Origin: an uncultured bacterium
GTDB lineage: Bacteria > Patescibacteriota > Minisyncoccia > Phycocordibacterales > GCA-2401445
Length of the DNA stretch: 64,000 nt
Direction of reading: 5' to 3'
Assembly (NCBI GenBank): GCA_937952265.1
Contig: CALFYW010000055.1
Span: 149,030 to 213,029 of the forward strand
This document shows, piece by piece, positions 1 through 14,573 of the stretch (position 1 is the first letter of the stretch; each line of letters starts with the position of its first letter). The notes beneath the pieces are model-generated. The model was not told the origin of the DNA. It made no database searches and saw only the letters and a program-made list of their open reading frames with translations. The position numbers and the translations under genes were made by a program.

Positions 1-855
1 AAAGAGCCCGATAATCACCAACGAACCGATAAATCCGAATTCTTCTGCGGCTACCGCGAAAATGGAATCTCCGACTGGTTCGGGAAGAAAGTTAAACTTT
101 TGAACTCCTTGTCCAAATCCCCTACCCCACAAACCTCCAGAACCGATCGCAATAAGCGACTGCTGAATTTGATACCCTGAGCCGTGTGGATCTGCTTCAG
201 GATTAAGGAAGGTCGAGAAACGATCGAGAATATAAGGTTTTGAGATAAGAAGAACGCCACTCGCGATGATTCCGATGAGGAGGATGATTGCTATATCTCG
301 CATGCGAGCTCCGGCAGTTAAAAACATTCCGAGCGCGGCAAACGATATGATTAAGAGAGTTCCCACATCTGGTTGGAGCGCGAGCATTCCCCCTACTATG
401 GCCAAGAGAATCACGATAGGGAGTAATCCAAAAGACATCTTTTGAATCTTTTCTCGTATACCTGAAAGCCATGCCGCAAGATAAATCACAAATCCAAATT
501 TGAGAAACTCGGCTGGCTGAAAGGTAAATCCGAATATTCCAACCCACCGCTGTGCCCCATTATGTTCGATACCAATCCCGGGTATGAATACGAGTCCGGT
601 AAGCATGAGCGCGCCTAGAAAAATGTAAAATGCGTGCTTTCGCCAAAATCGATAGGGTATGTTGGAAGTGATAATGAGCGCAATGGCCCCAAGTATAAGG
701 CCAATGAAAGTCTGTCGAAGAAGAATTGATGAAAAGGATGCTCCATCACGGGCATGGAGTCCCATAGATGCTGAAATAAAAATTAAGAATCCAGCAAAAA
801 GAATCGTGATAATGCAAATCAGGAATGGTTTGTCAACCGTACTTTTTCTTCGCAT
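1..855 (-). CDS. ftsW: SEDS-family peptidoglycan polymerase FtsW/RodA, N-terminal part; gene continues beyond the window start
   Basis: Minus-strand translation from ATG at 855 gives MRRKSTVDKPFLICIITILFAGF...PGIGIEHNGAQRW...AEEFGFIGSL, with hallmark SEDS motifs. It starts 7 nt after the mraY stop. It is absent from the ORF track because it is truncated by the window edge. Confidence 0.8.
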   Translation of the reverse strand, partial: MRRKSTVDKPFLICIITILFAGFLIFISASMGLHARDGASFSSILLRQTFIGLILGAIALIITSNIPYRFWRKHAFYIFLGALMLTGLVFIPGIGIEHNGAQRWVGIFGFTFQPAEFLKFGFVIYLAAWLSGIREKIQKMSFGLLPIVILLAIVGGMLALQPDVGTLLIISFAALGMFLTAGARMRDIAIILLIGIIASGVLLISKPYILDRFSTFLNPEADPHGSGYQIQQSLIAIGSGGLWGRGFGQGVQKFNFLPEPVGDSIFAVAAEEFGFIGSLVIIGLF

Positions 856-861
856 GTCTTC

Positions 862-1917
862 TTATCCAATAAGCGCGATAATGAGTCCAACCATAGCGAA
901 AATAACCGTAAGAATCCAAAATCGCATGGTAACTTTATAACCCGGCCATCCTAAGGCTTCAAAGTGGTGATGGATTGGGGCGATGAGAAACAGCTTCCTT
1001 CCAAGGAATTTCTTTGAAGCAATTTGCAAAATGACTGAAAATGAAACTGCAAAAAGCGGGAACGCAATAATCGGCAACACCGCCACCTGTTCAGTAAGGA
1101 ATGCGACTACGGTAAGGCTTGTGGTGAGGCCAAGCACGCCGGTCTCTGACATATAGAATCGTGCCGGTGGAATATTAAACCAGAGGAATGCGAGTATTCC
1201 TCCTACCACTACCGCGCAGAATGCCGCAAGGTCAATTTGGTTCTGAAAGAAAGAGATTACCCCATAGGCTGAAAAAATAATCGCCATGACCCCTCCTGCA
1301 AGGCCGTCAATGCCATCAATCACTCCTCCCGAAAATACCGCAATCATAATCAATACAAAAGTAGGTATAAATAACCAACCAAGCGCGAGTGGGCCTGAAA
1401 AAGGAATGATGATTGATGCCACCTCAAGCTTATCAAAGAACCACCATGCACCAATAAGACCAATGATTCCAACAACGAGAATCCTAATGCTTAATGGAAT
1501 TCCTCCCGCGATGTATCCGCCTTTACCGCCAACGGTAAGGAAGTCATCGATAAGCCCCAGTATTGAGGCGCTGATAAGGGTAAAGAGCGGAAGCCAGGTT
1601 TGGTTTCGACTCAGGAAATCGAGCTTGCTTGTAATTTCTCCCGGAAAGAAAAATGAAATAATCCAAATACAAGCAATCGTCAATATCACACTTCCCCAAA
1701 TAACGATTCCGCCCATACGAGGGGTATTTACCTCTTTATCTTTATGGAGTTTATTGAAAAGCGGAGTCTCTCCTCCGCCGAGTGCCTGTGTACGCGCTTT
1801 CTTTTTCCACATTTTGTGGGCGTAGAGATAGTGCGTAATGATAGGGGTAATCGCAACACCAATGGTAAACGAAATGGTTAAAGGAAAAAATACCTTAACT
1901 ACATCAATGATCATCAT
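862..1917 (-). CDS. mraY: Phospho-N-acetylmuramoyl-pentapeptide transferase
   Basis: 351 aa polytopic membrane protein with DGIDGLAGG and PIHHHFE motifs typical of MraY. dcw-cluster context next to ftsW. Confidence 0.95.
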   Translation of the reverse strand: MMIIDVVKVFFPLTISFTIGVAITPIITHYLYAHKMWKKKARTQALGGGETPLFNKLHKDKEVNTPRMGGIVIWGSVILTIACIWIISFFFPGEITSKLDFLSRNQTWLPLFTLISASILGLIDDFLTVGGKGGYIAGGIPLSIRILVVGIIGLIGAWWFFDKLEVASIIIPFSGPLALGWLFIPTFVLIMIAVFSGGVIDGIDGLAGGVMAIIFSAYGVISFFQNQIDLAAFCAVVVGGILAFLWFNIPPARFYMSETGVLGLTTSLTVVAFLTEQVAVLPIIAFPLFAVSFSVILQIASKKFLGRKLFLIAPIHHHFEALGWPGYKVTMRFWILTVIFAMVGLIIALIG

Positions 1918-2906
1918 AGTGTGTTATCTCTCTCAAGAATTTGATCCTCGTACGCAAGATACTCAAGGGCAGCCCATACCAGTTTCTCCACATCTTTAAA
2001 GCGGTCTTCATACGTTGAGCCAAGTGCCACTACCACGATGGGGTGTCCAATACCCGCGTCAAATATAACCGCGAGATTTCCTCCCGCAAGCGCGGTAAAA
2101 CCGGTTTTTGAACCCAAGAGCCCAGGAATCTGGTTTACCGATTCATTCGTATTCGTCAATTCATGGGAGAGTTCACTTAATGAGGTGATCGTGAGGTTTT
2201 GATAGCGGGTCGCATCGAGAATGTAGGGATAATGTTCTAAAATATAGGAGAATAGCATTCCTACATCTCGAGCAGATCCATAGGCGCCAGAGAGCGTATC
2301 CGTAACATCAAGCCCCGATTCATTGATGAAGTAGGTTTGCGTTAAACCAAGTTCTTTTGCAACCGTATTCATTGCATCGATAAAGTGAATGGTGCTCGAA
2401 GTGGCGGTAGTCCTGTTTTCCGGTTTCTTGGTGATAAACGCGCTACCCACGGACGCGATCGCCGACGCGCCGTCGTTTGAGGAAGTAACAAGCGTATAAT
2501 CAAGCAAATCTTTTACATCCCATTCTTCGTGCATATAAAGCCCTGTGTCTCCCTCCGCGCGTAGGTCGTCGGCTGATATCGTGATGGTGTTGTAGAGCGG
2601 AATTTTTTCAGCAGCCACCAGCGCGGTCATTGCTTTGGTTATGGATGCGAGTGGGACTTGCAGTTCTGCATTATGCGCGTAAAGAACCTTCTGCTCTCTC
2701 ACGTCGTAGACATAGGAAGCGTTAGCCATAAGCTCAAGGGATTCAAAGGGGTTTGCAAGTTGCGGTTTTTCATTTCCCGCGTCTGGTTTTTGTGCCTGAC
2801 CTACTGGTTTGGTGTTTGGAGTAAATGCGGGAATGAAAGAGAGCGTAATGATTGCCCCCATGAGGAGTGAGATCGCAAAAAATTGTCGTTGTGTTTCTGT
2901 GGTCAT
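1914..2906 (-). CDS. D-alanyl-D-alanine carboxypeptidase (S11 penicillin-binding protein, DacA-like). ORF track start is 2984; internal Met at 2906 is preferred because it avoids overlap with scpB.
   Basis: SxxK (SITKAM), SxN (SSNDGAS) and KTG (GSKTGFT) active-site motifs. N-terminal transmembrane segment. Confidence 0.85.
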   Translation of the reverse strand: MTTETQRQFFAISLLMGAIITLSFIPAFTPNTKPVGQAQKPDAGNEKPQLANPFESLELMANASYVYDVREQKVLYAHNAELQVPLASITKAMTALVAAEKIPLYNTITISADDLRAEGDTGLYMHEEWDVKDLLDYTLVTSSNDGASAIASVGSAFITKKPENRTTATSSTIHFIDAMNTVAKELGLTQTYFINESGLDVTDTLSGAYGSARDVGMLFSYILEHYPYILDATRYQNLTITSLSELSHELTNTNESVNQIPGLLGSKTGFTALAGGNLAVIFDAGIGHPIVVVALGSTYEDRFKDVEKLVWAALEYLAYEDQILERDNTL

Positions 2907-4207: not shown

Positions 4208-5536
4208 TTACGAATGAAGTAAGGTGTCAATACGATGTATATCACGTGGAAAAAGAGACGCCTCTTTTACGTTTTCGATTCCGAGTAAGCGCGCCGTGAG
4301 GCGCTCCAAACCAGTGCCGAATCCTCCATGTGGAGGCATGCCGTATTTAAATGCCTGAAGGTAGAATGAGAATTTCTGAGGATCAAGTTTTTTCTTTTCC
4401 ATCGACCTGAGTAGTTGCTCATAATCATGGATCCGCTGCCCACCAGTAGTGATTTCAAGCCCTCGGAAAAGTAAATCAAAACCTCCCGCGTATCCAGGAT
4501 CATGAGGATCTTCATAGGTATACATCGGCCGTTTTGACAACGGGAAATGGGTAATAAAGATAAAATCCGAATTTAATTTTTCTTTTGCGTAGGTGCCAAT
4601 CCAGCGCTCATGCTGAGGTTCGAGATCGGGTTCATTGCTGATGTTTTGCCCAGTTTCTTTTTCGATCAATGCTTGTGCTTCGCGCAGTTTCATTTGAGGA
4701 ATTTGCTTCGGAATATCGGGGAGTGTTGCGTTAAGGAGTTTGAGTTCGCGCGCGACGTGTTTTTCTAAATAGGTATTGAGGTGGTGTAAGAATTGGGTTT
4801 TGATGTTTGTGATATCCGTGTAGTCACTGATAAAACCCATCTCTGCGTCGAGGCTGGTGTACTCATTGAGATGCCTACTGGTACTGTGGAGTTCAGCACG
4901 GTAGACATTACCAATCGCGAATACTCGCTCATACACGCCGACCATAATCTGTTTATAGAACTGCGGGCTTTGCGCGAGGCTCGCCTGATAGCCAAAATAT
5001 TCTGTTTTGAAAGTCTGTGCTCCACCTTCTGCGTCTTCCCCAATGATTTTTGGCGCTTGTATTTCAGTAAAGAGATTGTGATTAAAAAACTCACGAAATG
5101 CTTGCACGATCGTAGCCTGAATTTTAAAAATAGCCCGAGGGCGTTCAGCCCGTAAGGTAAATGGAAGATGGTCGAGGTATGTTTCTATACCGACATCAGC
5201 GCCTCGCTCGAATGGCAACTCCTGGGCTTTTGATAGGATGGTGATTTCTTCTGCTTCAAGCTCGAGAGTGCCATTCTGCTCACCTTCTTTAACCATCGCT
5301 CTCGGGCGCTCATGAACGGTCCCGAGTACTTGCACGCTCCACTCGGGGCGAATTGTTTGTGCTATCTGATGTACTTCTGGATGTGAAGGAAGGATAACGA
5401 CTTGGAGTTTCCCCGTGAGATCTCGTATTTCAAAAAAGATGAGTTTCCCGTGGTCCCGTCGAATGTTAATTGAGCCCATAATGAGCACCTTCTTTTCAAT
5501 GTGATTTTCTAAATCAGTGAGTAGTATTCGTTCCAT
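4208..5536 (-). CDS. aspS: Aspartate--tRNA ligase, archaeal/eukaryal-type class IIb, probably non-discriminating
   Basis: 442 aa with OB-fold N-terminus. Class II motif 3: YGMPPHGGFGTGLERL, GGQR. The size fits short AspRS2. gatB is present in the window, consistent with an indirect Asn-tRNA pathway. Confidence 0.8.
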   Translation of the reverse strand: MERILLTDLENHIEKKVLIMGSINIRRDHGKLIFFEIRDLTGKLQVVILPSHPEVHQIAQTIRPEWSVQVLGTVHERPRAMVKEGEQNGTLELEAEEITILSKAQELPFERGADVGIETYLDHLPFTLRAERPRAIFKIQATIVQAFREFFNHNLFTEIQAPKIIGEDAEGGAQTFKTEYFGYQASLAQSPQFYKQIMVGVYERVFAIGNVYRAELHSTSRHLNEYTSLDAEMGFISDYTDITNIKTQFLHHLNTYLEKHVARELKLLNATLPDIPKQIPQMKLREAQALIEKETGQNISNEPDLEPQHERWIGTYAKEKLNSDFIFITHFPLSKRPMYTYEDPHDPGYAGGFDLLFRGLEITTGGQRIHDYEQLLRSMEKKKLDPQKFSFYLQAFKYGMPPHGGFGTGLERLTARLLGIENVKEASLFPRDIHRIDTLLHS

Positions 5537-5545
5537 AGAAATATA

Positions 5546-6535
5546 TTAAGCTAATGTAACCCCAATCTTTTTTCGGATAATAGACATGGTCTTTTCTGCT
5601 TGTATTTGAGCTTTTTGAGCGCCTTTATTGAGTATGTCTTCTACTGCCCTCTTTTCTTTTTCGAGCTCACTTCGGCGCGTTCGAAGCGGAGCAATAAATT
5701 TTTCAATGTGCGCTATAAGCATTTCTTTTGATTCATGGTATCCAATATCCCCTTCTTGGTATCGCTTTCGGAGTTCATCGAGTGTTTCGGGTGGGAGGAA
5801 TAGCTTGTGGAGCGAGAAAATAGTACATGTTTCAGGATCTTTAGGCTCAGTTTTCCCTTTTGAGTCAGTAGGAATACTCATAACACCTTTTTCTATTTCT
5901 TCTGGCGAAGCGAAAAGCGGAATCGTGTTTTGGTAGCTCTTACTCATTTTCCGTCCGTCAGTCCCTGGCACGGTTTTTACGTTATCGAGAATAACTGGCT
6001 CAGGAACTGAGAATGTTTCTCCAAATGTTCGATTAAACTCGAGCGTGGTATTTCGTGCAATCTCGATATGTTGTTTCTGATCGCTTCCCACGGGAACATG
6101 GTCCGCGTTATAAAGCAGAATATCTGCGGCCATCAAAATGGGATAGGTAAACGTGCCGACATTAATCTCCTTATTTTTTTCTTTCGCGTCTTTGTATGCG
6201 TGCGCCCGCATCAAATACGGCATGGTAGTAATACAACTAAAAATCCATGCCAGCTCAGCGTGTTGAGAAACACTCGATTGTTTAAAAATCGTAGCCTGTG
6301 TTGGATCAATGCCGACCGCCAGATAATCGAGAGTGATGTCAATAATATTTTTTCTTAGTTCACTCGGGTCATGGAGGGTGGTGAGGGCATGGTAATCCGC
6401 AATGAAGATAAAAGTCTCGTAGCGTTTTTGAAGGTCCACGAGTTGCTTAATCGCACCAAAATAATTCCCAATATGTATTCGCCCGGTTGGTTTTATACCC
6501 GAAAGAAGCCTTTCCCTTTTCATGCTAAAAAGCAT
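5546..6535 (-). CDS. trpS: Tryptophan--tRNA ligase
   Basis: 329 aa class I synthetase. HIGH-type motif (KPTGRIHIGNY) and KMSKS present. Size and motifs match TrpRS rather than TyrRS. Confidence 0.9.
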   Translation of the reverse strand: MLFSMKRERLLSGIKPTGRIHIGNYFGAIKQLVDLQKRYETFIFIADYHALTTLHDPSELRKNIIDITLDYLAVGIDPTQATIFKQSSVSQHAELAWIFSCITTMPYLMRAHAYKDAKEKNKEINVGTFTYPILMAADILLYNADHVPVGSDQKQHIEIARNTTLEFNRTFGETFSVPEPVILDNVKTVPGTDGRKMSKSYQNTIPLFASPEEIEKGVMSIPTDSKGKTEPKDPETCTIFSLHKLFLPPETLDELRKRYQEGDIGYHESKEMLIAHIEKFIAPLRTRRSELEKEKRAVEDILNKGAQKAQIQAEKTMSIIRKKIGVTLA

Positions 6536-6536
6536 A

Positions 6537-6562
6537 GCAAAATTGGGCTAAAGTGGAAAGTG
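6537..6562. repeat. Copy 1 of a 26-bp perfect direct repeat, caaaattgggctaaagtggaaagtgg, with imperfect extension
   Basis: Identical 26-mer recurs at 9211-9236. Both copies lie in intergenic DNA and flank a 2.7 kb segment. Confidence 0.7.
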
Positions 6563-6739
6563 GGACTGTGGGTGGATTATGGAATTCCTCCATCTGATTA
6601 TAAAATCACAAGGTCGGTCACATCCCTTTTAAGTTTTTCGTGGTGTAATTTAATTTATCTTGGTTTATCATAATTTCGTTATCCGTTTTCTATATTGTGA
6701 GTCTTCCTATCGAATCCCCATCAGTAAGGATGACAGATA

Positions 6740-6776
6740 AGAAGAAAACCACCAGTTCATCGGGTGGTTTTTGTCT
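6740..6776 (-). terminator. Putative bidirectional intrinsic terminator
   Basis: Hairpin aaaccacc-agttcatcg-ggtggttt flanked by an A tract on one side and a T tract on the other. Lies immediately downstream of the minus-strand ORF 6787-7515. Confidence 0.5.
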
Positions 6777-6786
6777 TTTTGAATAT

Positions 6787-7515
6787 TTATAACAAGAAAA
6801 AGGCGATAAATAAAAATATTAAAATGAATGTAACTAATTTTATGAAATTAAACAAACATTGTTTCTTTCTATAAATCATACAGAGCTCATTTCCTTCGCG
6901 AACCATTTTCTGTGTAAATTTACCCTTTTTATTATGAAATATATCAATAAAAGTTTCAAGGAACACGAGCCTTTTTCTGAGGTTATACCGGTGAGAATCA
7001 AGGAATACCAAATCATTTGGAACAATGTCTCTAATCACCAATACGGGCGTTGGTGTCCGAAGGGGATACCAATTCTCATTATGTAAGCTCGGCGCTTGAC
7101 TTGTCGGATAAAGAGCTCCTAACATGAGTGCGTGTTGAACACAGTACTCCTTATTATTGAATTGTAGTTCTAGCAACTTCTCAATATCAAATTGTTTAGG
7201 AAACAGGATAATAATGGCTCCAAAATCGTCATTATCTTTTCGTGAAGAGATATAAAATTCAACACATTCTGTAATCAGTCTTGTACAATCCTGCATCGTG
7301 GCGTCCTCGGCAATTGCGGTAAAAAAGATACGTCGCTTCTTTAATGCCGCATGTACAAAAGGGCAAACTTTTCCTTCCCGAAAAGGATGGTCTGCACAGA
7401 GAAATTGCTGTACATACGGTAACACTTCTTTGTACAATGACGTCACGGAATCAGACGTATATTCCTGACCAAAAGTTTCAACTGTCCAGAAATTTGATAC
7501 TGGATCATGTTTCAT
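6787..7515 (-). CDS. Hypothetical protein, 242 aa, with Cys/His-rich segment CADHPFREGKVCPFVH and a hydrophobic C-terminal tail
   Basis: Long ORF with normal codon usage and a terminator downstream. No family recognised from sequence alone. Lies inside the direct-repeat-flanked segment. Confidence 0.55.
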   Translation of the reverse strand: MKHDPVSNFWTVETFGQEYTSDSVTSLYKEVLPYVQQFLCADHPFREGKVCPFVHAALKKRRIFFTAIAEDATMQDCTRLITECVEFYISSRKDNDDFGAIIILFPKQFDIEKLLELQFNNKEYCVQHALMLGALYPTSQAPSLHNENWYPLRTPTPVLVIRDIVPNDLVFLDSHRYNLRKRLVFLETFIDIFHNKKGKFTQKMVREGNELCMIYRKKQCLFNFIKLVTFILIFLFIAFFLL

Positions 7516-7566
7516 AGTTATCCTTTCTCGTGATATGTTAAAGAGCCGTCTCTTTTTTTGTTAAAA

Positions 7567-7600
7567 TCCCCTGAACATATGCAGGCATATGTTCAGGGGA
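7567..7600. promoter_or_regulatory. Near-perfect 34-bp palindrome (16-nt arms tcccctgaacatatgc/gcatatgttcagggga) in a divergent intergenic region
   Basis: Located between divergent genes 6787-7515 (minus) and 8007-9209 (plus). Dyad symmetry is typical of a dimeric transcription-factor operator; it could also fold as a 14-bp RNA hairpin. Confidence 0.4.
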
Positions 7601-8006
7601 TTAACATGTAAGATTGGTTATTTATATTTAAGTACTATAAGTACTACCATTTCCAACCTACGTTATGTGATTGACCCACGCAGAACCAAGAAAAAAATCG
7701 TTTGAAAAAATTTTTCTTGCGCCAGTATCGGTCGGTAAGAACATCGTCTTGTTTGTGTGGGGTAACAAATATGACAGATTTTGGATCAGCGAATTCTGAT
7801 GGCATTAATTTATCCTCCGGGTTCATATATTTTCGCTCCATCTCGTCTCTCACAGACTACGCATTTACATTATCTGTCTGTAAAGATACCAAACAAAATA
7901 AAGACTTTTTTAAATGCTAATTCTATGATAGACTCTAATCTGTATCCTGTCAATAGAAACATTAGGTACACTTTTTACAGGATCTTTTTATATTTAAAAA
8001 TGTTTT

Positions 8007-9209
8007 ATGACAAATTTGGAAAAAGCAAGACATAATGTTCTGAGAGAAAATCCGGATTTACCCATGACGCTTAGGTTTGAAGTTTCCCCATCGGAAACCG
8101 TTAACAGACTTTTATCAGTTGTGGATCTTACCCTAGATGACGAAATTAATAACAAAGAGAAAAATATAATTGGTCAAATATACAACCAAATTCTTGTAAA
8201 ATTACGAGAATATAGATTTCCTAACATTACAATTATACGCGGAAACCCTATAGTTAGTGTCGAAGATAATTTTGATAACCTTTTGTTTTCTCCCGGAAAT
8301 CCGGGCAGATCATCAACATATACGCGCTATACTGATGAAGATCATGTATTGAGAACTCATACTTCCGCACTTGTGCCGAGTACATTCAGAAAATTGCAAA
8401 ATAAGCAGAACCCAATGACATTTGTTTTTCCGGGGTTAGTGTATAGGCGCGATGTAATAGACCCCAAGCATCTAGACGTGTTTCATCAACTTGATGTATG
8501 GACTTTACAAGAAAATAAAACGTACGGCACCGCTAATAGAAAGGATTTACTAAGATTGGCAAAGGCTATATTTGAAGCCGCTTGTCCGGGCGCCACAATG
8601 ATAGTATATGAAGCACAACACCCGTACACTATTGATGGTATTGAGGTATATGCGGAAGTAGAAGGACAAAAAATAGAAGTTCTTGAAGCGGGGCTTGCTC
8701 ATCCTGGGGTCTTAAAAAAAGCAGGCATTGATCCACAGCAATACTCAGGACTTGCACTCGGTATGGGGATTGAAAGACTAATCATGGCAAGAAAAGTTTT
8801 GCCGGATATTAGGTTAATTCGTTCAGCTGATCCGCGCATTGTTAAACAAATGACCAATATGGAGAAGTTTGTTTCGGTGTCCAATCAGCCAGCTATGACC
8901 AGGGACATGTCTTATTGTGTTGACAGAAATGATACTGAGGAAGATATTTGTGAAGCAATTAAGGATGCATTTGGAGAAAATAGAGACCTTCTAGAGCAAG
9001 TAGAAGTATTAGAAAGAACGCCTTTTCAGGAGTTAAATTCAGCAGCAAGAAACAGGTTAGGAGCAAATGAAAATCAAGATAATATTTTGGTGAGAATCAC
9101 TTTACGTCACCCTGACAAATCACTTACCAAAGAACAGGCTGCGATATTGTATACTGAGGTGTATCCCAAAATCCATCAAGGAACAACGGAAGGATATCGA
9201 GTTAAATAA
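8007..9209 (+). CDS. Monomeric mitochondrial-type phenylalanyl-tRNA synthetase-like protein (PheS-like class II core fused to C-terminal FDX-ACB anticodon-binding domain)
   Basis: Motif 2 (FPGLVYRRDV...FHQLDVW) and motif 3 (GLALGMGIERLIMARKVLPDIRLI) align to PheS of this same window ([43 protein letters not shown]). C-terminal 100 aa (QPAMTRDMSYCV...ILVRITLRHPDKSLTKEQA) parallels the FDX-ACB domain at the PheT C-terminus (YPFVVRDIAIFV...YAFRLIFQDYAKTLSDAEV). The 400-aa length matches FARS2-type monomeric PheRS. Confidence 0.75.
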   Translation: MTNLEKARHNVLRENPDLPMTLRFEVSPSETVNRLLSVVDLTLDDEINNKEKNIIGQIYNQILVKLREYRFPNITIIRGNPIVSVEDNFDNLLFSPGNPGRSSTYTRYTDEDHVLRTHTSALVPSTFRKLQNKQNPMTFVFPGLVYRRDVIDPKHLDVFHQLDVWTLQENKTYGTANRKDLLRLAKAIFEAACPGATMIVYEAQHPYTIDGIEVYAEVEGQKIEVLEAGLAHPGVLKKAGIDPQQYSGLALGMGIERLIMARKVLPDIRLIRSADPRIVKQMTNMEKFVSVSNQPAMTRDMSYCVDRNDTEEDICEAIKDAFGENRDLLEQVEVLERTPFQELNSAARNRLGANENQDNILVRITLRHPDKSLTKEQAAILYTEVYPKIHQGTTEGYRVK

Positions 9210-9210
9210 C

Positions 9211-9236
9211 AAAATTGGGCTAAAGTGGAAAGTGGA
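9211..9236. repeat. Copy 2 of the 26-bp direct repeat caaaattgggctaaagtggaaagtgg
   Basis: Identical to 6537-6562. Lies immediately after the stop of the PheRS-like gene. Confidence 0.7.
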
Positions 9237-9254
9237 GATTGGGAGAGCTTCAAA

Positions 9255-10853
9255 CTACTCTGTCGTTTGGAGTTCTACAATGAAAGAAGAACCTTTCCCT
9301 TCCCCTTCCGATTCAGCCCATACTTTACCTTTATGTGCCTCAACAAGTTGGCGCGCAACATAGAGTCCGAGCCCTGTTCCAAGTACATTTACCTTGTTTG
9401 CGTTATATGCCCTGCTGAATTTTTCAAATAACACGGCAATCGTTTCTTTAGACATGCCAATTCCTGTGTCTTTGATCGTAACACGGATTTTCTGCCCCAT
9501 TCGCTTGATAGTTACTACCACTTCCCCATGAGGAGTGTATTTAATTGCATTATCAATCAGATTACCAATCACTTGCTTCATCTTTCCCATATCAGCATGT
9601 ACAAAAAACCTCGATGCTTCAGGTGGGTTAAAGTAGATTTTAATCCCTGCCCGCTTTGCGGTTGGATCGCTCTCTTTTATCACTTCATCGATAAGCTCTT
9701 TCATATCAAAGCGAGAAAAATGAAATTTCATTGTTCCTTGTTCAATACGAGATACGTCCAAAAAATCATTAACCACAAACGTGAGAGAGTTTGCTGATTG
9801 GAAAATACGATTGATAGCTTCCCGTATTTTTTCTTGAGCTATTTCTCCAAACGAGCCCTCGAGGAGGAGCGAAGAATAGCCCTTGATAGCGGTAAGCGGT
9901 GCCCTAATCTGATGTGTTGCAATGGATATGAATTCTGATTTTTGCTTATCCAATTCCCGCAATTTGCTATTGGTAGTTTTCAAATCATCTGCCAAAGACT
10001 CAATCTTCTCTCTTGAGTCTACTTCTCGATAGACCCCCTTTATGAGTAAATAACTAAAGATTGTGATTGCGATAAGAATCAAAGCCTTTATTAAGATGTT
10101 TGTTGGTGATTCTTCAATAAATATTTCAACAAAAAGTACGGTGATAATAATAATTGAAAAAAGCTCTGTAACAAGAACTTTTATATTAAATAAATGGTAT
10201 TTTAAAATAGCGATAAAAATAGCAGAAACTAGAATTACTGAAAATAGAGGACCAACCCATGTGAATTCAAAAATTTTAAATACTGGCAAAATTAAATTTG
10301 TAAAGAGTGCCAAAGAAGAAGAGATTATTAATCCTATAGAGATTAATCTGATCTGATCTTTTGATTTTTGAGATGCGTTTTCGTGTTGTTTTAAAAGTAG
10401 AAGATAAGCACCAAAGAAATAAAATATTACTAAAAGCTGATACAAGGGATATCCATTTTTTAGTTCATAGGTAGCAGTGGTTGCCTCCATCGGAGGAGCA
10501 ATGATTGAGTCAGTTAGGAATAGGAAAAATAACATTACACAAAATGGTATAAGTACAGAAAAATAAAATAATCTTCCGGAGAATATTTTATTAGGGAAAA
10601 TATTAGAAAATAAGAAAACAATTAATCCTGTAAATAACGCTGTCGAGTGTGTCCATGCCAGCCATTCAATGTCTAAAAGATAGCTTCTAGAGTAAAACCC
10701 TACAATGCTTACACACCAACCAGCCACTCCTAGAGATAAAAAACCGAACAAAATATTGAAAGAATTTCTCAGCCCACGTGAGAGAATGATAACAGAAAGT
10801 ATTATGTTTATAACAACAGTTATAAGTAGTAGTGGTATGATGATTTCTTGCAT
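9255..10853 (-). CDS. Sensor histidine kinase with multi-pass N-terminal membrane domain (HisKA + HATPase_c)
   Basis: At least 8 predicted TM helices, then H-box ATHQIRAPLTAIKGY, N-box and G-boxes (DTGIGM...GTGLGLYVARQLVEAH). No response regulator is adjacent in the window. Confidence 0.9.
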   Translation of the reverse strand: MQEIIIPLLLITVVINIILSVIILSRGLRNSFNILFGFLSLGVAGWCVSIVGFYSRSYLLDIEWLAWTHSTALFTGLIVFLFSNIFPNKIFSGRLFYFSVLIPFCVMLFFLFLTDSIIAPPMEATTATYELKNGYPLYQLLVIFYFFGAYLLLLKQHENASQKSKDQIRLISIGLIISSSLALFTNLILPVFKIFEFTWVGPLFSVILVSAIFIAILKYHLFNIKVLVTELFSIIIITVLFVEIFIEESPTNILIKALILIAITIFSYLLIKGVYREVDSREKIESLADDLKTTNSKLRELDKQKSEFISIATHQIRAPLTAIKGYSSLLLEGSFGEIAQEKIREAINRIFQSANSLTFVVNDFLDVSRIEQGTMKFHFSRFDMKELIDEVIKESDPTAKRAGIKIYFNPPEASRFFVHADMGKMKQVIGNLIDNAIKYTPHGEVVVTIKRMGQKIRVTIKDTGIGMSKETIAVLFEKFSRAYNANKVNVLGTGLGLYVARQLVEAHKGKVWAESEGEGKGSSFIVELQTTE

Positions 10854-10857
10854 AAAA

Positions 10858-11562
10858 TTATTTTAAAGCAGTGTTTAGAACAGCTTGCTTGGCGTAAAGA
10901 TATTCAGGTTTGGAAATCTTCTGAAACCCAGCTGATCTTAAGAGTGACTCTTGTTTTTGCGCACTTAGAAAGGCGTAATTTTTATTCCTGTTTTCTTTTC
11001 TTATAAGATAATTGTAATAAAAAATTCTTATAGTAGGAAGAAGTAGTCGTGTTACCTGAATAATAGTTTTTAGGGTTCCATGTTTTTTTCTCATCTTTTT
11101 TAAATGTTCCAGATATATTTTTTTAGGAGAAAATCCGTCTTGTATATTACTAAGAATGATTTTTCCCTTTGGGCGTAAGATTCTGTAGAATTCCAACAAA
11201 ACCATTTTCTGTTTCTCGGAGGAGATTGTGTAAAGTGTATTGTTTGAAATGATTTTATCAAAAGAATTGTCTTTAAAAGGAAGTCTCTTTGTTAAGTCAC
11301 CTAAAATAATTACTGCTTCAGGGTCTTTTTGTTGGTGTAGACGAGTTCCTTGGGGGGAAAAATCAAAAGAGGTGACTTTTGCACGAGTTTCTCTTAATCT
11401 AACAGAGAGATTCCCTGTTCCTGATCCTGCATCTAAAATAAGTTCTCCTTCTTTTGGATCGGCAACGTTTGTTATTTTTTCTATTAATTCCGAATACGGA
11501 ATAAGATTATTTAATAAATCGTAATCTTGAAAATATTTTTCCCAAAATTTTTCAGTTAACAT
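10858..11562 (-). CDS. Class I SAM-dependent methyltransferase
   Basis: Motif I ILDAGSGTGNLS, acidic motif II and motif III. 234 aa. Confidence 0.85.
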   Translation of the reverse strand: MLTEKFWEKYFQDYDLLNNLIPYSELIEKITNVADPKEGELILDAGSGTGNLSVRLRETRAKVTSFDFSPQGTRLHQQKDPEAVIILGDLTKRLPFKDNSFDKIISNNTLYTISSEKQKMVLLEFYRILRPKGKIILSNIQDGFSPKKIYLEHLKKMRKKHGTLKTIIQVTRLLLPTIRIFYYNYLIRKENRNKNYAFLSAQKQESLLRSAGFQKISKPEYLYAKQAVLNTALK

Positions 11563-11574
11563 AAAAGTTCATCC

Positions 11575-12336
11575 TTACTTAATAACTCCAAGCATTCTTA
11601 AGAAATGGGTATAAGGGTTTGATTTCAATCGAAATTCCCTTCCAGAGTTTTCTTTCTCAAAGATCAACTTATTGTCTGTAACTTTTGATAAATATTTTTT
11701 ATATTCTTGGGTTAGAAAGTAGAATGGGGCGACTGTGTCTGTTGGTTGATAGAAATATTTACTAAGTTTTGCATTTTTGGGATACAAAAGTGCGTAATTA
11801 TTTATAGGATGAAGAGGAAATTTTAACTTTTCCATTTTTGTCTCTAGACTATTTTTTAGAAAGAAATAACCTCCCTGTATATTATTTTCCTCGCTGTATT
11901 TCATCAGAGAATCAAGAATAAATAACATTGTTAAGTTTCGAGGTAGGAATTCACCAATTTCCTCATGTGTGGGTTTTATGACAAACCTACTTAATTCAGC
12001 GATTGACCCACTTTTTTTTAGTTCTTTTATTTGATCCGGTTCGTCAAATTTAAAAAATTTTTCAGTTGGTAATGGGTTTGTTTTAATCAAACGAATTGTT
12101 CCAAAAATTTTTTTATTAACACAGGCTATGAAATAAATACAAGAACCGTCTTCATCAAAAGAGTCTTTCTCAGATTCGTCTGGAAAATCTTTCTGATCAA
12201 TATATTCTTTTTTTAAATAGATTTGATATCTTAACCTATGGACACTTTCCTGCTCTTGTTTTTGGTCTGCTATTCCGAAGGTTAGGATATGCTCTTTGTT
12301 TTTTATTTCTAAGGTTAATGATGTGCTGACTTTCAT
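11575..12336 (-). CDS. GNAT-fold N-acyltransferase of the OlsB / N-acyl amino acid synthase family (lyso-aminolipid synthase candidate)
   Basis: N-terminal pattern LRYQIYLKKEYID...DSFDEDGSCIYFIA...IFGTIRLI...IAELSRFVI matches the Acetyltransf_5/OlsB-FeeM family signature. Adjacent to a PlsC-like O-acyltransferase. Confidence 0.6.
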   Translation of the reverse strand: MKVSTSLTLEIKNKEHILTFGIADQKQEQESVHRLRYQIYLKKEYIDQKDFPDESEKDSFDEDGSCIYFIACVNKKIFGTIRLIKTNPLPTEKFFKFDEPDQIKELKKSGSIAELSRFVIKPTHEEIGEFLPRNLTMLFILDSLMKYSEENNIQGGYFFLKNSLETKMEKLKFPLHPINNYALLYPKNAKLSKYFYQPTDTVAPFYFLTQEYKKYLSKVTDNKLIFEKENSGREFRLKSNPYTHFLRMLGVIK

Positions 12337-12354
12337 CTATATATTTTAGTGTTA

Positions 12355-13035
12355 TTACACAGACTTTGTCTCTTTGAGAGAATAAACCGCGTTCATAATT
12401 TTTTCTGCAATTTTGTGTAGGGCTTCAACGGATTGGTTACTATCTTCAGTGAATTCCATTTTTTTACCAAAAGAAACAATGGTCTTTTTTTTACCAGAAT
12501 TTTTTTCTCTCGTGTGGTGAATGTGAACAGGTATGACAGGTGTCTTTGTGTACGTTGCTAGAAACGCAACACCTCCGTGCACAATGGTTGCCCTTTCTGC
12601 TTCTGGTTTATTAAATTTCCCTTCAGGAAAGATACATAAATTATAACCCAATTTAAGAATTTGAATATGGTCTTGAAGCGACCATTTATAATCTTTCTTT
12701 CCAGGGTGTGTCGCGTATCCGCCAACAACCTCAAAGAATTTTCCACCATAAAAATAAGATCGGATGCCAAATCTTTCTGATGATTGGTAATTTTTTTTCG
12801 GAAGCGCGACAAAATAAAATGGAGAGAAACGAGAAAAGATCGGGAGTGCCGCTCGAATAAGGATCGGGTCAAGTTCAGTCGTATGATTGGCAGCAAAAAT
12901 CGCATTGGACCTCATCTCCGAGAGGTTTTCCATCCCCTTTACTTGAAAGCCTCGAGTAAGTGAGATGACTATTTTAGTGGAGATGAAAAAAAAGGGCTGA
13001 AGGAGTAAAGGCATCCAGTATAAAATTTTTTTCAT
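12355..13035 (-). CDS. Lysophospholipid acyltransferase (PlsC family; OlsA-like O-acyltransferase candidate)
   Basis: HX4D motif (NHTTELDP) and FPEG motif (CIFPEGKF). N-terminal membrane anchor. Confidence 0.75.
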   Translation of the reverse strand: MKKILYWMPLLLQPFFFISTKIVISLTRGFQVKGMENLSEMRSNAIFAANHTTELDPILIRAALPIFSRFSPFYFVALPKKNYQSSERFGIRSYFYGGKFFEVVGGYATHPGKKDYKWSLQDHIQILKLGYNLCIFPEGKFNKPEAERATIVHGGVAFLATYTKTPVIPVHIHHTREKNSGKKKTIVSFGKKMEFTEDSNQSVEALHKIAEKIMNAVYSLKETKSV

Positions 13036-13195
13036 AATGTTACTTTCCTATTTTATACCACGTCTCTCACATCCTGAACAGTTCTGGTGCAATATTTAGA
13101 CACCGGAGGCAACTATTTTTTTAACCATTTTCTTTGGCCATATGAATTTTTTTTACCTCTTGTATATCCCACTGTGTTCATTTTTACCGTATGGT

Positions 13196-13804
13196 TCAAA
13201 TTTTAACACAAATTGGAACTGTTAAATCTTTTGGTGAGACGGGAACTGAAAATAAAACCCTCGTCTTTCTATTTGAAACGTACTCTTTATTTGTTTTCTT
13301 TTTGAAATCTGAACCAGAGACAATATGTATATATCCATCTTTAAATTTCGAAGGACCATTAATAAATCCAAGAGAGATCGAAAGTTTAATTGGTCGAGAT
13401 TTGGGAGTATGCACTGAAGCTCCTCCGGACTCTCGAATATCCAAGATTGCCAGAAAGATTGCGTAATTAGGGTCATCTGTTGCGTATACGAGATTCAGTG
13501 ATTCCTTCTTCCCGTCTTGATCTACGGATGTATTTGGTTCCAACATAGTAAGCATGTTCGTCGATCCGTGAAAGAGGATGGTGCTCGATACAAATTTAGG
13601 TAATATGCAATTGTTTTTTTCGCAAAAAACATAGAATCTCTGAAGATGTCTCTTTTGTTGAATATGGAAAAGAAACTCAACCGTGCTTGAAAGTTTATTT
13701 TGTTTTTTGAAATCCTGTAATAAATTTTTGGAGATTAACGTGTTGTTTTGCATAGAGAATATAATATCAGGAAACGAAGACCCTAAAAAGAGAAGGGAAA
13801 GCAT
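13196..13804 (-). CDS. Hypothetical protein (202 aa)
   Basis: ORF only; no family recognised. Confidence 0.45.
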   Translation of the reverse strand: MLSLLFLGSSFPDIIFSMQNNTLISKNLLQDFKKQNKLSSTVEFLFHIQQKRHLQRFYVFCEKNNCILPKFVSSTILFHGSTNMLTMLEPNTSVDQDGKKESLNLVYATDDPNYAIFLAILDIRESGGASVHTPKSRPIKLSISLGFINGPSKFKDGYIHIVSGSDFKKKTNKEYVSNRKTRVLFSVPVSPKDLTVPICVKI

Positions 13805-14028
13805 TTTGCTTTCCCTTCTGTGATTTTAATATGTACTCTTCTGACTAGGTTTTACCGTATTTCCCCCAACCTTTGTCCCACCCTTTCTGCCAGTTCATAA
13901 GATTAGCAGATCGCGGCTCAGAGATTTTTATGTTACTGTCACGTTCTTGTTCTAGATCATAAGCCCTTTGGGAGAGCTCCTCGAGACTTTCTTTTTGTCT
14001 CGCAATTCGTTCCTCCAGTATTTTTTTT

Positions 14029-14394
14029 TCATAAACGGTTCTTTTGATTAGGTATTTTTTGATTCGAGTTCCTGAAGAATGCGCACCAGTATTCATTGAT
14101 AAGTGTTGCATTGGTTTGAATAGCGTGTTGTACAAGACCTTTTTCACGCAAATCTTCAAATGGAATAATGAGTTTCTTGAGATATGCCAGACCGCAAGCC
14201 AAGGGTTCCCCGGCATGCCATATGAGCTCAACACCATTGTCAAGCATGCCTATATCTTGAGCAATCCTTTCTGCTATGTGTAGTGACATTCTCCGATTTT
14301 TATCTCGATCTGGGAGGTAACAGTAACTACAGTTAAGATTGCAGAGTTGAGTTGGCTGCATGACTAGCCGTTCAATAGAAAATTTAATGTTCAC
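14029..14394 (-). pseudogene. Disrupted radical-SAM/SPASM maturase gene (anSME-like); only the N-terminal ~120 aa with intact CxxxCxxC remain in frame
   Basis: Translation QPTQLCNLNCSYCYLPDRD...IWHAGEPLACG...IQTNATLINEYWCAFF tracks the N-terminus of anaerobic sulfatase-maturase-type enzymes. Homology is lost exactly where the frame ends; homologs are about 370 aa. An overlapping ORF, 13845-14243, lies in another frame, and its C-terminus is not radical-SAM-like. Confidence 0.5.
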
Positions 14395-14573
14395 AACAAC
14401 ATCCTTTATGTTAGGAGACTCAAATAACAGATTATTTTAGTTTGTCAATTGATGCATACAAAATCGTTCTGACATAATAATAGTATATATAGAAAAACCA
14501 GTCAATAGTTTGTGGTTTAGATTATTCTAATGTGTTAGAATGAGAATTATTTATTTTAAGAAGTGTATACGAT

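Follow-up and report, generated by a model that had tools for sequence, protein, structure and literature searches.

A candidate small-molecule signalling module with an exchangeable synthase and receptor in a member of the Patescibacteria

A 64,000-nucleotide stretch of contig CALFYW010000055.1 (positions 149,030 to 213,029; the whole stretch is referred to here as the window) from an uncultured bacterium of the Patescibacteria, or Candidate Phyla Radiation (CPR), contains a compact group of four genes on the minus strand (Table 1). These encode a PlsC-family acyltransferase, an N-acyltransferase of the LuxI/FeeM/OlsB superfamily (NAS), a class I S-adenosylmethionine (SAM)-dependent methyltransferase (MT), and a histidine kinase (HK) with many transmembrane (TM) segments. 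By analogy with known synthase and kinase pairs, we propose that this four-gene unit is a small-molecule signalling module in which the signal synthase and its receptor can be swapped, and we put the probability of this at roughly 0.55. The observations behind it are the domain identities, a predicted fold, conserved residues, gene linkage, gene fusion, and boundaries in composition and sequence similarity.

In the mechanism we favour, acyl-CoA or acyl carrier protein (acyl-ACP) would donate a fatty acyl chain, which NAS would attach to the amino nitrogen of an acceptor of the amino-acid type. LuxI enzymes use SAM in this place and FeeM uses a free amino acid, and the acceptor here may be either; the predicted product is an N-acyl amino acid or an amide resembling an acyl-homoserine lactone (AHL). 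MT would methylate this product or a precursor of it; the simplest chemistry would be formation of a carboxyl methyl ester, and the N-acyl amino acid methyl ester so formed would be neutral and membrane-permeant. This lipophilic compound would bind among the 8-9 helices that form the membrane half of the kinase and so change its phosphorylation output. NAS, MT and the kinase sensor half would thus make up one exchangeable cassette, lying between a resident plsC gene and a conserved kinase catalytic half. The substrates, the methyl acceptor, the pairing of ligand and receptor, and any quorum-sensing behaviour are inferred.

The gaps between PlsC and NAS, NAS and MT, and MT and the kinase are 18, 12, and 4 bp, respectively, in open reading frame (ORF) coordinates, and the cluster therefore looks like a single operon; a scan for promoters and terminators gave a result no better than that for shuffled sequence and was not used. 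The first three ORFs lie on the minus strand exactly where the original prediction for this DNA, made from the sequence alone, had placed them, with the kinase directly downstream, and it had assigned their domains correctly (the Pfam matches are far stronger than chance would give). The motifs that it quoted are all found in PlsC and NAS, and its description of a multi-TM histidine kinase with no response regulator nearby is borne out, as there are 8-9 hydrophobic segments together with HisKA and HATPase_c domains, and no receiver domain is present among ORFs of at least 50 aa in the entire window. Its interpretation of these genes, as an aminolipid pathway with an envelope or phosphate sensor attached, fared less well.

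The N-acyltransferase and its methyltransferase partner

The best Pfam model for NAS is PF21926 FeeM (50 bits, gathering cut-off 27), and it also matches PF13444 (31.7 bits, cut-off 22.4), such that the 253-aa protein does match the PF13444 and FeeM profiles, as the original prediction required. Two more specific models are not matched: NAS scores 55.7 bits against TIGR03694 for PEP-CTERM/exosortase-associated acyltransferases (cut-off 111.95), and there is no exosortase context, and it falls far short of the OlsB equivalog NF052554 (19.4 bits, cut-off 350). An AlphaFold model of NAS, built with five sequences, has a pLDDT of 86 and a pTM of 0.85, and its best matches in the PDB by Foldseek are LasI (E=6e-10), BjaI, and MesI, then FeeM, and then RpaI, EsaI, and TofI; for the FeeM structure 2G0B the match has E=1.6e-7 and a target-normalised TM-score of 0.71. 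The predicted fold is both LuxI-like and FeeM-like. At the sequence level, a profile of the NAS clade finds only LuxI-type synthases among PDB sequences (RpaI is the best, at E=3.5e-8, with BjaI, LasI, MesI, EsaI, and TofI) and does not reach FeeM.

The characteristic NAS motifs are RYQIY at position 36, FDEDG at 60, GTIRLI at 79, and ELSRF at 114. Across 98 full-length representatives of the family, R36, Y40, Y45, D58, D61, R82, E114, and R117 are 90-100% conserved, and all of these apart from Y45 are 96-100% conserved. With a list and numbering of conserved LasI residues based in part on PMC9654057, the NAS positions align with LasI R23, F27, (W33), D44, D47, R70, E101, and R104, although the W33 tryptophan is not kept in the NAS family, where Y45/I46 lie at that place. 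A second departure from the LuxI proteins, which are ~200 aa long, is a conserved C-terminal extension of ~80 residues that they lack. The family is large: an exhaustive search of representatives yields 118 clusters, defined at 50% identity, with E<1e-30; word-indexed protein searches find only 3-5 relatives. Judged by sequence and modelled fold, NAS is a member of a distinct clade lying between LuxI and FeeM, and not an OlsB.

MT matches Methyltransf_11 (63.7 bits) and has the SAM motif ILDAGSGTG at residue 42. Its best matches in NCBIfam and the PDB are generic class I enzymes (the DVU_1556 family, CpaM, UbiE/MenG, BioC, plant PMTs, and CypM), and these cover the SAM-binding core only (at 30-41 bits for the PDB matches), so that the methyl acceptor is not readable from homology. 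Gene context is more informative. Genome and metagenome scans and contig look-ups, in which six-frame ORFs were searched with the window proteins, gave twelve distinct loci with a NAS orthologue (numbered here with L), and the relatives include Buchananbacteria, Uhrbacteria, and one metagenome-assembled genome labelled 'Patescibacteria group'. An orthologous MT (215-240 bits) adjoins NAS in 11 of the 12, the twelfth (L008) being too short to judge, and a multi-TM kinase is adjacent to NAS or within ~4 kb of it in all 12. The gene order varies: it is NAS-MT-HK in the window, L012, L002, L025, L057, and L064, and MT-NAS-HK in L011, L004, and L006; in L001 and L010, the kinase is convergent with an MT-NAS pair.

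There are also database proteins in which NAS and MT are fused, in both orders (P0076 and P0080 as NAS-MT, and P0154 as MT-NAS). L064 and L065, which are independent assemblies, both carry the P0080 fusion as a continuous ORF at the DNA level; P0076 and P0154 are database calls only. Because of the strict adjacency and the gene fusions, we place MT and NAS in the same pathway; the two are clearly coupled, and MT appears from these sequence comparisons to be an obligate partner of NAS. A methylation step tied to the synthase was part of the original prediction and may be right in spirit, but nothing ties MT to the OlsG N-methyltransferase that had been suggested.

This coupling bears on a simple alternative, in which NAS is a plain LuxI-type synthase producing an ordinary AHL, and MT acts on an unrelated substrate. 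NCBI names two NAS relatives (P0003 and P0050) 'acyl-homoserine-lactone synthase', the clade members L004 and L006 exceed the cut-off of PF00765 Autoind_synth (45.3 and 34.1 bits, respectively), the clade profile finds the six LuxI-type synthases listed above, and the conserved acidic and arginine residues of the N-terminal part are retained. The alternative is nonetheless contradicted by the NAS/MT fusions and by the strict adjacency of MT, and the loss of the W33 equivalent, the C-terminal extension, and the failure of the window NAS to reach the PF00765 cut-off also count against it. We regard it as very improbable.

The histidine kinase and the variable slot downstream of plsC

The kinase has well-matched catalytic domains (HisKA, 59 bits; HATPase_c, 99 bits), with an H-box HQIRAP at 314 (H314) and intact N, G1, and G2 boxes. 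The 8-9 hydrophobic segments lie within residues 1-271, and hydropathy indicates no large extracytoplasmic domain or loop. Compared with the TM halves of the kinases beside other NAS-MT cassettes, several of which have a match to PF16927 (HisKA_7TM), the TM half reaches 219-240 bits; for the PF16927-carrying kinases of L002, L057, and L064, the range is 219-236 bits. Comparison of the two halves separately is informative. The kinase of L012, which follows a NAS-MT cassette, is 55% identical to that in the window in the catalytic half and 47% in the TM half. Where a different cassette is present, the catalytic half is similarly conserved and the TM half is not: the values are 53% and 28% in L056, 55% and 23% in L060, and 51% and 18% in L061. 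The reverse pattern is seen in L002, which has a NAS-MT cassette and whose kinase is 29% identical in the catalytic half and 43% identical in the TM half. By these identities, the sensor half of the kinase goes with the synthase cassette, and the catalytic half goes with the genomic backbone.

Envelope or phosphate sensing had been suggested as a possible link to the kinase; a role as receptor for the product of NAS-MT, of which it is a conserved partner, is the better interpretation. Response regulators are found at the CPR loci with NAS, MT, and kinase genes only in L064/L065, where they are single-domain CheY-like proteins beside the kinase, and in L064 two of them flank the PlsC/NAS-MT/HK locus (Table 1). 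A separate observation concerns L004, a Buchananbacteria contig, in which three tandem stand-alone membrane proteins of ~224-230 aa are encoded upstream of MT-NAS-HK; two of the three match HisKA_7TM and are thus sensor domains without a kinase.

The PlsC protein matches PF01553 Acyltransferase (49 bits, cut-off 23) and, as had been predicted, contains HX4D (H51-TTEL-D56) and FPEG (at 136) motifs, along with PVIP at 166. It scores 36.4 bits against the AGPAT subfamily model TIGR00530 (cut-off 102.95), and has no sequence relative among solved structures. There are ~45 homologues at 30-50% identity, some of which are named lysophospholipid acyltransferase and come from Paceibacterota. PlsC adjoins NAS in four of 11 informative loci (the window, L012, L057, and L064) and is not adjacent in the other seven, as judged at the level of the locus only. 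Conversely, PlsC orthologues are found in six contexts where there is no NAS partner at the locus (L056, L058, L060, L061, L062, and L063).

The context of the PlsC orthologues suggests how these patterns arise. They lie in a grpE-dnaK-dnaJ-plsC backbone, which is followed by a slot of variable content and then by a trpS/tyrS-type synthetase. The far edge of the slot, where present, is formed by tRNA-synt_1b and tRNA-synt_2 genes, as in the window; in L060 both of these genes come after the kinase, and tRNA-synt_1b is also present in L056 and L063. The slot may hold NAS and MT, or other genes (Table 1), and the kinases that follow the other cassettes in L056, L060, and L061 are orthologues of the window kinase. 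With a constant backbone and varying slot content, PlsC therefore looks resident and the signalling genes variable. It is most likely that PlsC is the ordinary lysophospholipid acyltransferase of the cell, co-transcribed with the module and not needed for it. Synteny rules out PlsC as a dedicated part of the module in all cases, given the four of 11 loci and the orthologues without NAS. We also note a database protein of 617 aa from the representative library (P0147) that is a predicted fusion of the NAS family and a class I/II aminotransferase-fold domain (PF00155); it joins the two types of synthase met in the slot.

Base composition changes at the same places. The GC content is ~0.31 over 10-12.5 kb compared with 0.42 for the whole window, and GC at third codon positions (GC3; Table 1) is low in MT, the kinase TM half, and NAS, and within or close to the range of the housekeeping genes in PlsC and the kinase catalytic half. 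The border between PlsC and NAS coincides with a GC3 border. A dip in whole-gene GC over NAS and MT is also present in L012, L002, L001, and L004.

These data bear directly on the aminolipid pathway that the original prediction proposed. In that model NAS would form a lyso-aminolipid, PlsC, in the manner of OlsA, would supply its second acyl chain, and MT, in the manner of OlsG, would methylate the head group, to give a phosphorus-free membrane lipid, with the kinase as regulator. The order of reactions, an N-acylation followed by an O-acylation with the genes adjacent, is known aminolipid logic, and the OlsB/OlsA, GlsB/GlsA, GluB, and OlsF systems have, as does the window, a PF13444-superfamily N-acyltransferase beside a PlsC-type O-acyltransferase (PMC11631085). 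The PF13444 match of NAS is above its cut-off, PlsC has both motifs and precedes NAS by only 18 bp within the operon, and L012, L057, and L064/L065 also have the order PlsC-NAS-MT-HK. The module departs from those systems, however, in failing the OlsB model and in having conserved MT and kinase genes and a PlsC partner that is not conserved, being absent beside NAS in 7/11 loci while most PlsC orthologues, in the same backbone, have no NAS. The clade profile that reaches LuxI-type proteins only, and the coincidence of the PlsC/NAS border with the GC3 border, also argue against the model, and O-acylation would require a 3-hydroxyacyl chain from type II fatty-acid synthesis, of which there is no obvious sign here. 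To our knowledge, there is no link between the known ols, gls, or glu loci and a co-varying multi-TM kinase. On balance, an aminolipid pathway is unlikely.

A broader version of the swappable module may be entertained, in which this is a diversifying, pherotype-like locus of the CPR: at a fixed slot downstream of plsC, the synthase and the matching TM half of the kinase would be exchanged as a unit, with the synthase being LuxI/FeeM-like with MT, CqsA-like, or of another kind. We put this forward tentatively, as a generalisation that is more likely wrong than right.

Neighbouring genes and peptide-modifying enzymes

Upstream of plsC is the remnant of a gene (a pseudogene) for a cyclophane-type radical SAM (rSAM)/SPASM peptide maturase related to AmcB. 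The AmcB match spans residues 4-111 only, and the C-terminal two thirds are gone; a tblastn search with the intact rSAM enzyme of L001 likewise matches the window with its residues 17-111 only. Intact enzymes of the type that act on ribosomally synthesised and post-translationally modified peptides (RiPPs) are found beside the NAS, MT, and kinase genes elsewhere. One example is L001, with an rSAM/SPASM enzyme and a 54-aa ORF, and others are L009 (rSAM/SPASM and an ABC ATPase), L010 (an MvdD ATP-grasp protein), and L011 (an M16 peptidase); L012 has MacB/HlyD export genes. The kind of enzyme varies by locus, and there is none in L002, L004, L006, or L064.

These neighbours raise the possibility that NAS and MT make a bioactive N-acyl amino acid (an antibiotic or biosurfactant), or lipidate and methylate a ribosomal peptide, with the kinase regulating only production or immunity. 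FeeM is the best Pfam model of NAS, and it was as antibacterials that the products of FeeM-type enzymes from environmental DNA came to light. The recurrence of RiPP enzymes (in the window as a remnant, and in L001, L009, L010, and L011, with the export genes of L012) fits this model, as does the presence of the RiPP methyltransferases CypM and LahSB among the nearest solved relatives of MT, although those matches are the low-scoring ones to the SAM-binding core. Against it, the RiPP enzymes vary and are missing from four loci where the kinase is constant, and co-variation of the sensor half with the cassette is not expected of a generic regulator. We therefore doubt that this is the correct explanation, and consider it about as unlikely as the aminolipid pathway.

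The window cluster lies within an 8-kb stretch of lower GC content (~6500-14500; 0.29-0.39, compared with ~0.44) between backbone genes, which looks like a variable island. Besides the module and the rSAM remnant, it holds genes for a DUF6875 protein, for a phenylalanyl-tRNA synthetase (PheRS)-like protein, and for a 202-aa protein that matches no family. The PheRS-like gene is convergent with the kinase and encodes a single-chain protein with a tRNA-synt_2d core and an FDX-ACB domain, an architecture of the mitochondrial type; L058 has a similar gene, for a 381-aa protein, immediately after PlsC. A hairpin with a perfect 13-bp stem (AGAAGGGAAAGCA...TGCTTTCCCTTCT) overlaps the start of the 202-aa ORF and is terminator-like on both strands. 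In L002, no ORF is convincing over the ~1.4 kb upstream of the synthase; GC there is visibly higher than in the module, and the region may contain an RNA gene.

Table 1. Positions of the module genes, the surrounding window features, and the related loci referred to in the text. GC3, GC content at third codon positions.
Sequence	Feature	Coordinates	Strand	GC3	Remarks
Window	PlsC-family acyltransferase	12355-13035	minus	0.357	226 aa; first gene of the operon; PF01553
Window	NAS, LuxI/FeeM/OlsB-superfamily N-acyltransferase	11575-12336	minus	0.268	253 aa; FeeM/PF13444
Window	MT, class I SAM-dependent methyltransferase	10858-11562	minus	0.243	234 aa; Methyltransf_11
Window	Histidine kinase, whole	9255-10853	minus		532 aa; HisKA and HATPase_c
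Window	Kinase membrane sensor half, residues 1-290	9984-10853	minus	0.255	8-9 TM helices by hydropathy; predicted ligand-binding part
Window	Kinase catalytic half (dimerization/phosphotransfer and ATP-binding domains, DHp and CA)	9255-9983	minus	0.383	HisKA, HATPase_c; H, N, G1, and G2 boxes
Window	Housekeeping genes			0.35-0.39	
Window	tRNA-synt_1b gene	5546-6535	minus		Pfam; far edge of slot
Window	tRNA-synt_2 gene	4208-5536	minus		Pfam; far edge of slot
Window	DUF6875 gene	6787-7515			
Window	PheRS-like gene	8007-9209	plus		400 aa
Window	202-aa protein	13196-13804			
Window	Hairpin	13791-13819			
Window	rSAM/SPASM maturase remnant, AmcB-like	13845-14394 (N-terminal remnant, 14029-14394)	minus		AmcB model, 144 bits
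L056	Slot after plsC	5577-8069			Methyltransf_20-like protein and kinase
L060	Slot after plsC	5702-9326			BioF/Kbl/CqsA-like pyridoxal phosphate (PLP)-dependent acyltransferase, acetoacetate-decarboxylase (ADC)-like protein, and 7TM kinase
L061	Slot after plsC	5695-9423			129-aa and 557-aa proteins without a family, and 7TM kinase
L058, L062, L063	Slot after plsC				No kinase
L004	Three tandem membrane proteins	325-2424	plus		
L002	Region upstream of synthase	1165-2618			
L064	CheY-like regulator	386-769			
L064	CheY-like regulator	5953-6327			

Relation to known systems and significance

Several points weigh against the proposed signalling role. The case for it is one of architecture and analogy. 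In the window, NAS scores only 19 bits against PF00765, below the cut-off of 24, and the model that fits it best is FeeM, a family without established signals among its products. Neither PF16927 nor any other Pfam model gives a match at E<=1 to residues 1-290 of the kinase, and the mirror-tree correlations, obtained from 28 non-independent pairs, are weak (rho of 0.55 for NAS and the TM half, and 0.61 for MT and the TM half) and no more than suggestive. No response regulator is present in the window or in most of the relatives. The low GC of the TM region is partly due to its hydrophobic codons, yet GC3 falls there as well, and so it does in NAS and MT, which are soluble. Among the five loci that have both the gene order of the window and enough upstream DNA, PlsC is adjacent in four (L002 is the exception), and it is possible that PlsC has a role specific to this NAS-MT-HK subtype. 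Finally, the organism group is reputed to lack fatty-acid synthesis, which makes the acyl donor uncertain.

The closest precedent is from the CPR itself. Homologues of LuxI have been reported in these genomes, 18 of them beside a sensory kinase, and were proposed to constitute a complete quorum-sensing system; some of the kinases match the CqsS sensory-domain profile, and PlsC-family proteins were classed there as 'HdtS AHL synthases' (Bernard et al. 2020, mSystems, PMC7567580). The module described here is like those pairs in organism group, synthase superfamily, and adjacency of a membrane kinase. A methyltransferase is not mentioned in the text of that paper or in the supplements consulted, and relative to that study the new elements are the apparently obligate MT partner with its fusions, the variable slot anchored by plsC, and the sensor half that follows the cassette.

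The layout of the module also parallels those of LuxM/LuxN and CqsA/CqsS (LqsA/LqsS in Legionella), in which a synthase gene lies beside one for a polytopic kinase that binds a lipophilic signal in its TM domain (PMC5007282, PMC3376566). The sensor of the window kinase is likewise polytopic with no periplasmic domain, a multi-TM kinase is adjacent to or near the synthase in 12/12 loci, and the likeness to CqsA/CqsS extends to the L060 slot with its CqsA/BioF-like enzyme and 7TM kinase. However, LuxM and CqsA belong to enzyme families other than that of NAS, the Vibrio systems have no methyltransferase, and LuxN and CqsS are hybrid kinases that feed into a known phosphorelay, whereas the module kinase has no receiver domain. 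With LuxI/LuxR, NAS shares the GNAT-type LuxI fold and, apart from the tryptophan, residues that align with the conserved LuxI-family set, and RpaI, BjaI, and LasI are its closest PDB sequences. The differences are that the predicted receptor is a membrane kinase and not a LuxR-type protein, and that NAS is below the PF00765 cut-off, has the C-terminal extension, and has an MT partner. FeeM and the N-acyl amino acid synthases from environmental DNA provide the best Pfam model and a fold match (2G0B), but not a match to the clade profile. We note that distant NAS relatives outside of the CPR are near response regulators of the sigma-54 type (L029 and L042).

There are precedents for a methylated signal as well. 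In Ralstonia, the SAM methyltransferase PhcB makes a fatty-acid methyl-ester signal that is sensed by the histidine kinase PhcS (PMC8578825); the comparison is one of function only, as that system has no N-acyltransferase, and PhcS has the partner regulators PhcR and PhcQ. N-acyl alanine methyl esters (NAMEs) of the Roseobacter group are AHL analogues whose synthase genes are unknown and which reportedly have no part in AHL signalling (PMC11580390). NAMEs are the class of product expected if MT esterifies an N-acyl amino acid, although they come from a different phylum.

The locus is not good evidence for the synthesis of ornithine-type aminolipids in these bacteria. How partners are recognised among the uncultured, host-dependent CPR/Patescibacteria is an open question on which the module may bear, and a compact three-gene unit with evidence of fusion and a sensor half that follows the cassette lends itself to a direct test. 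If the broader proposal is correct, a pherotype-like locus of this kind would offer the first genetic route to the class of compound that it makes and would provide a private channel of communication among ultra-small symbionts, or between them and their hosts.

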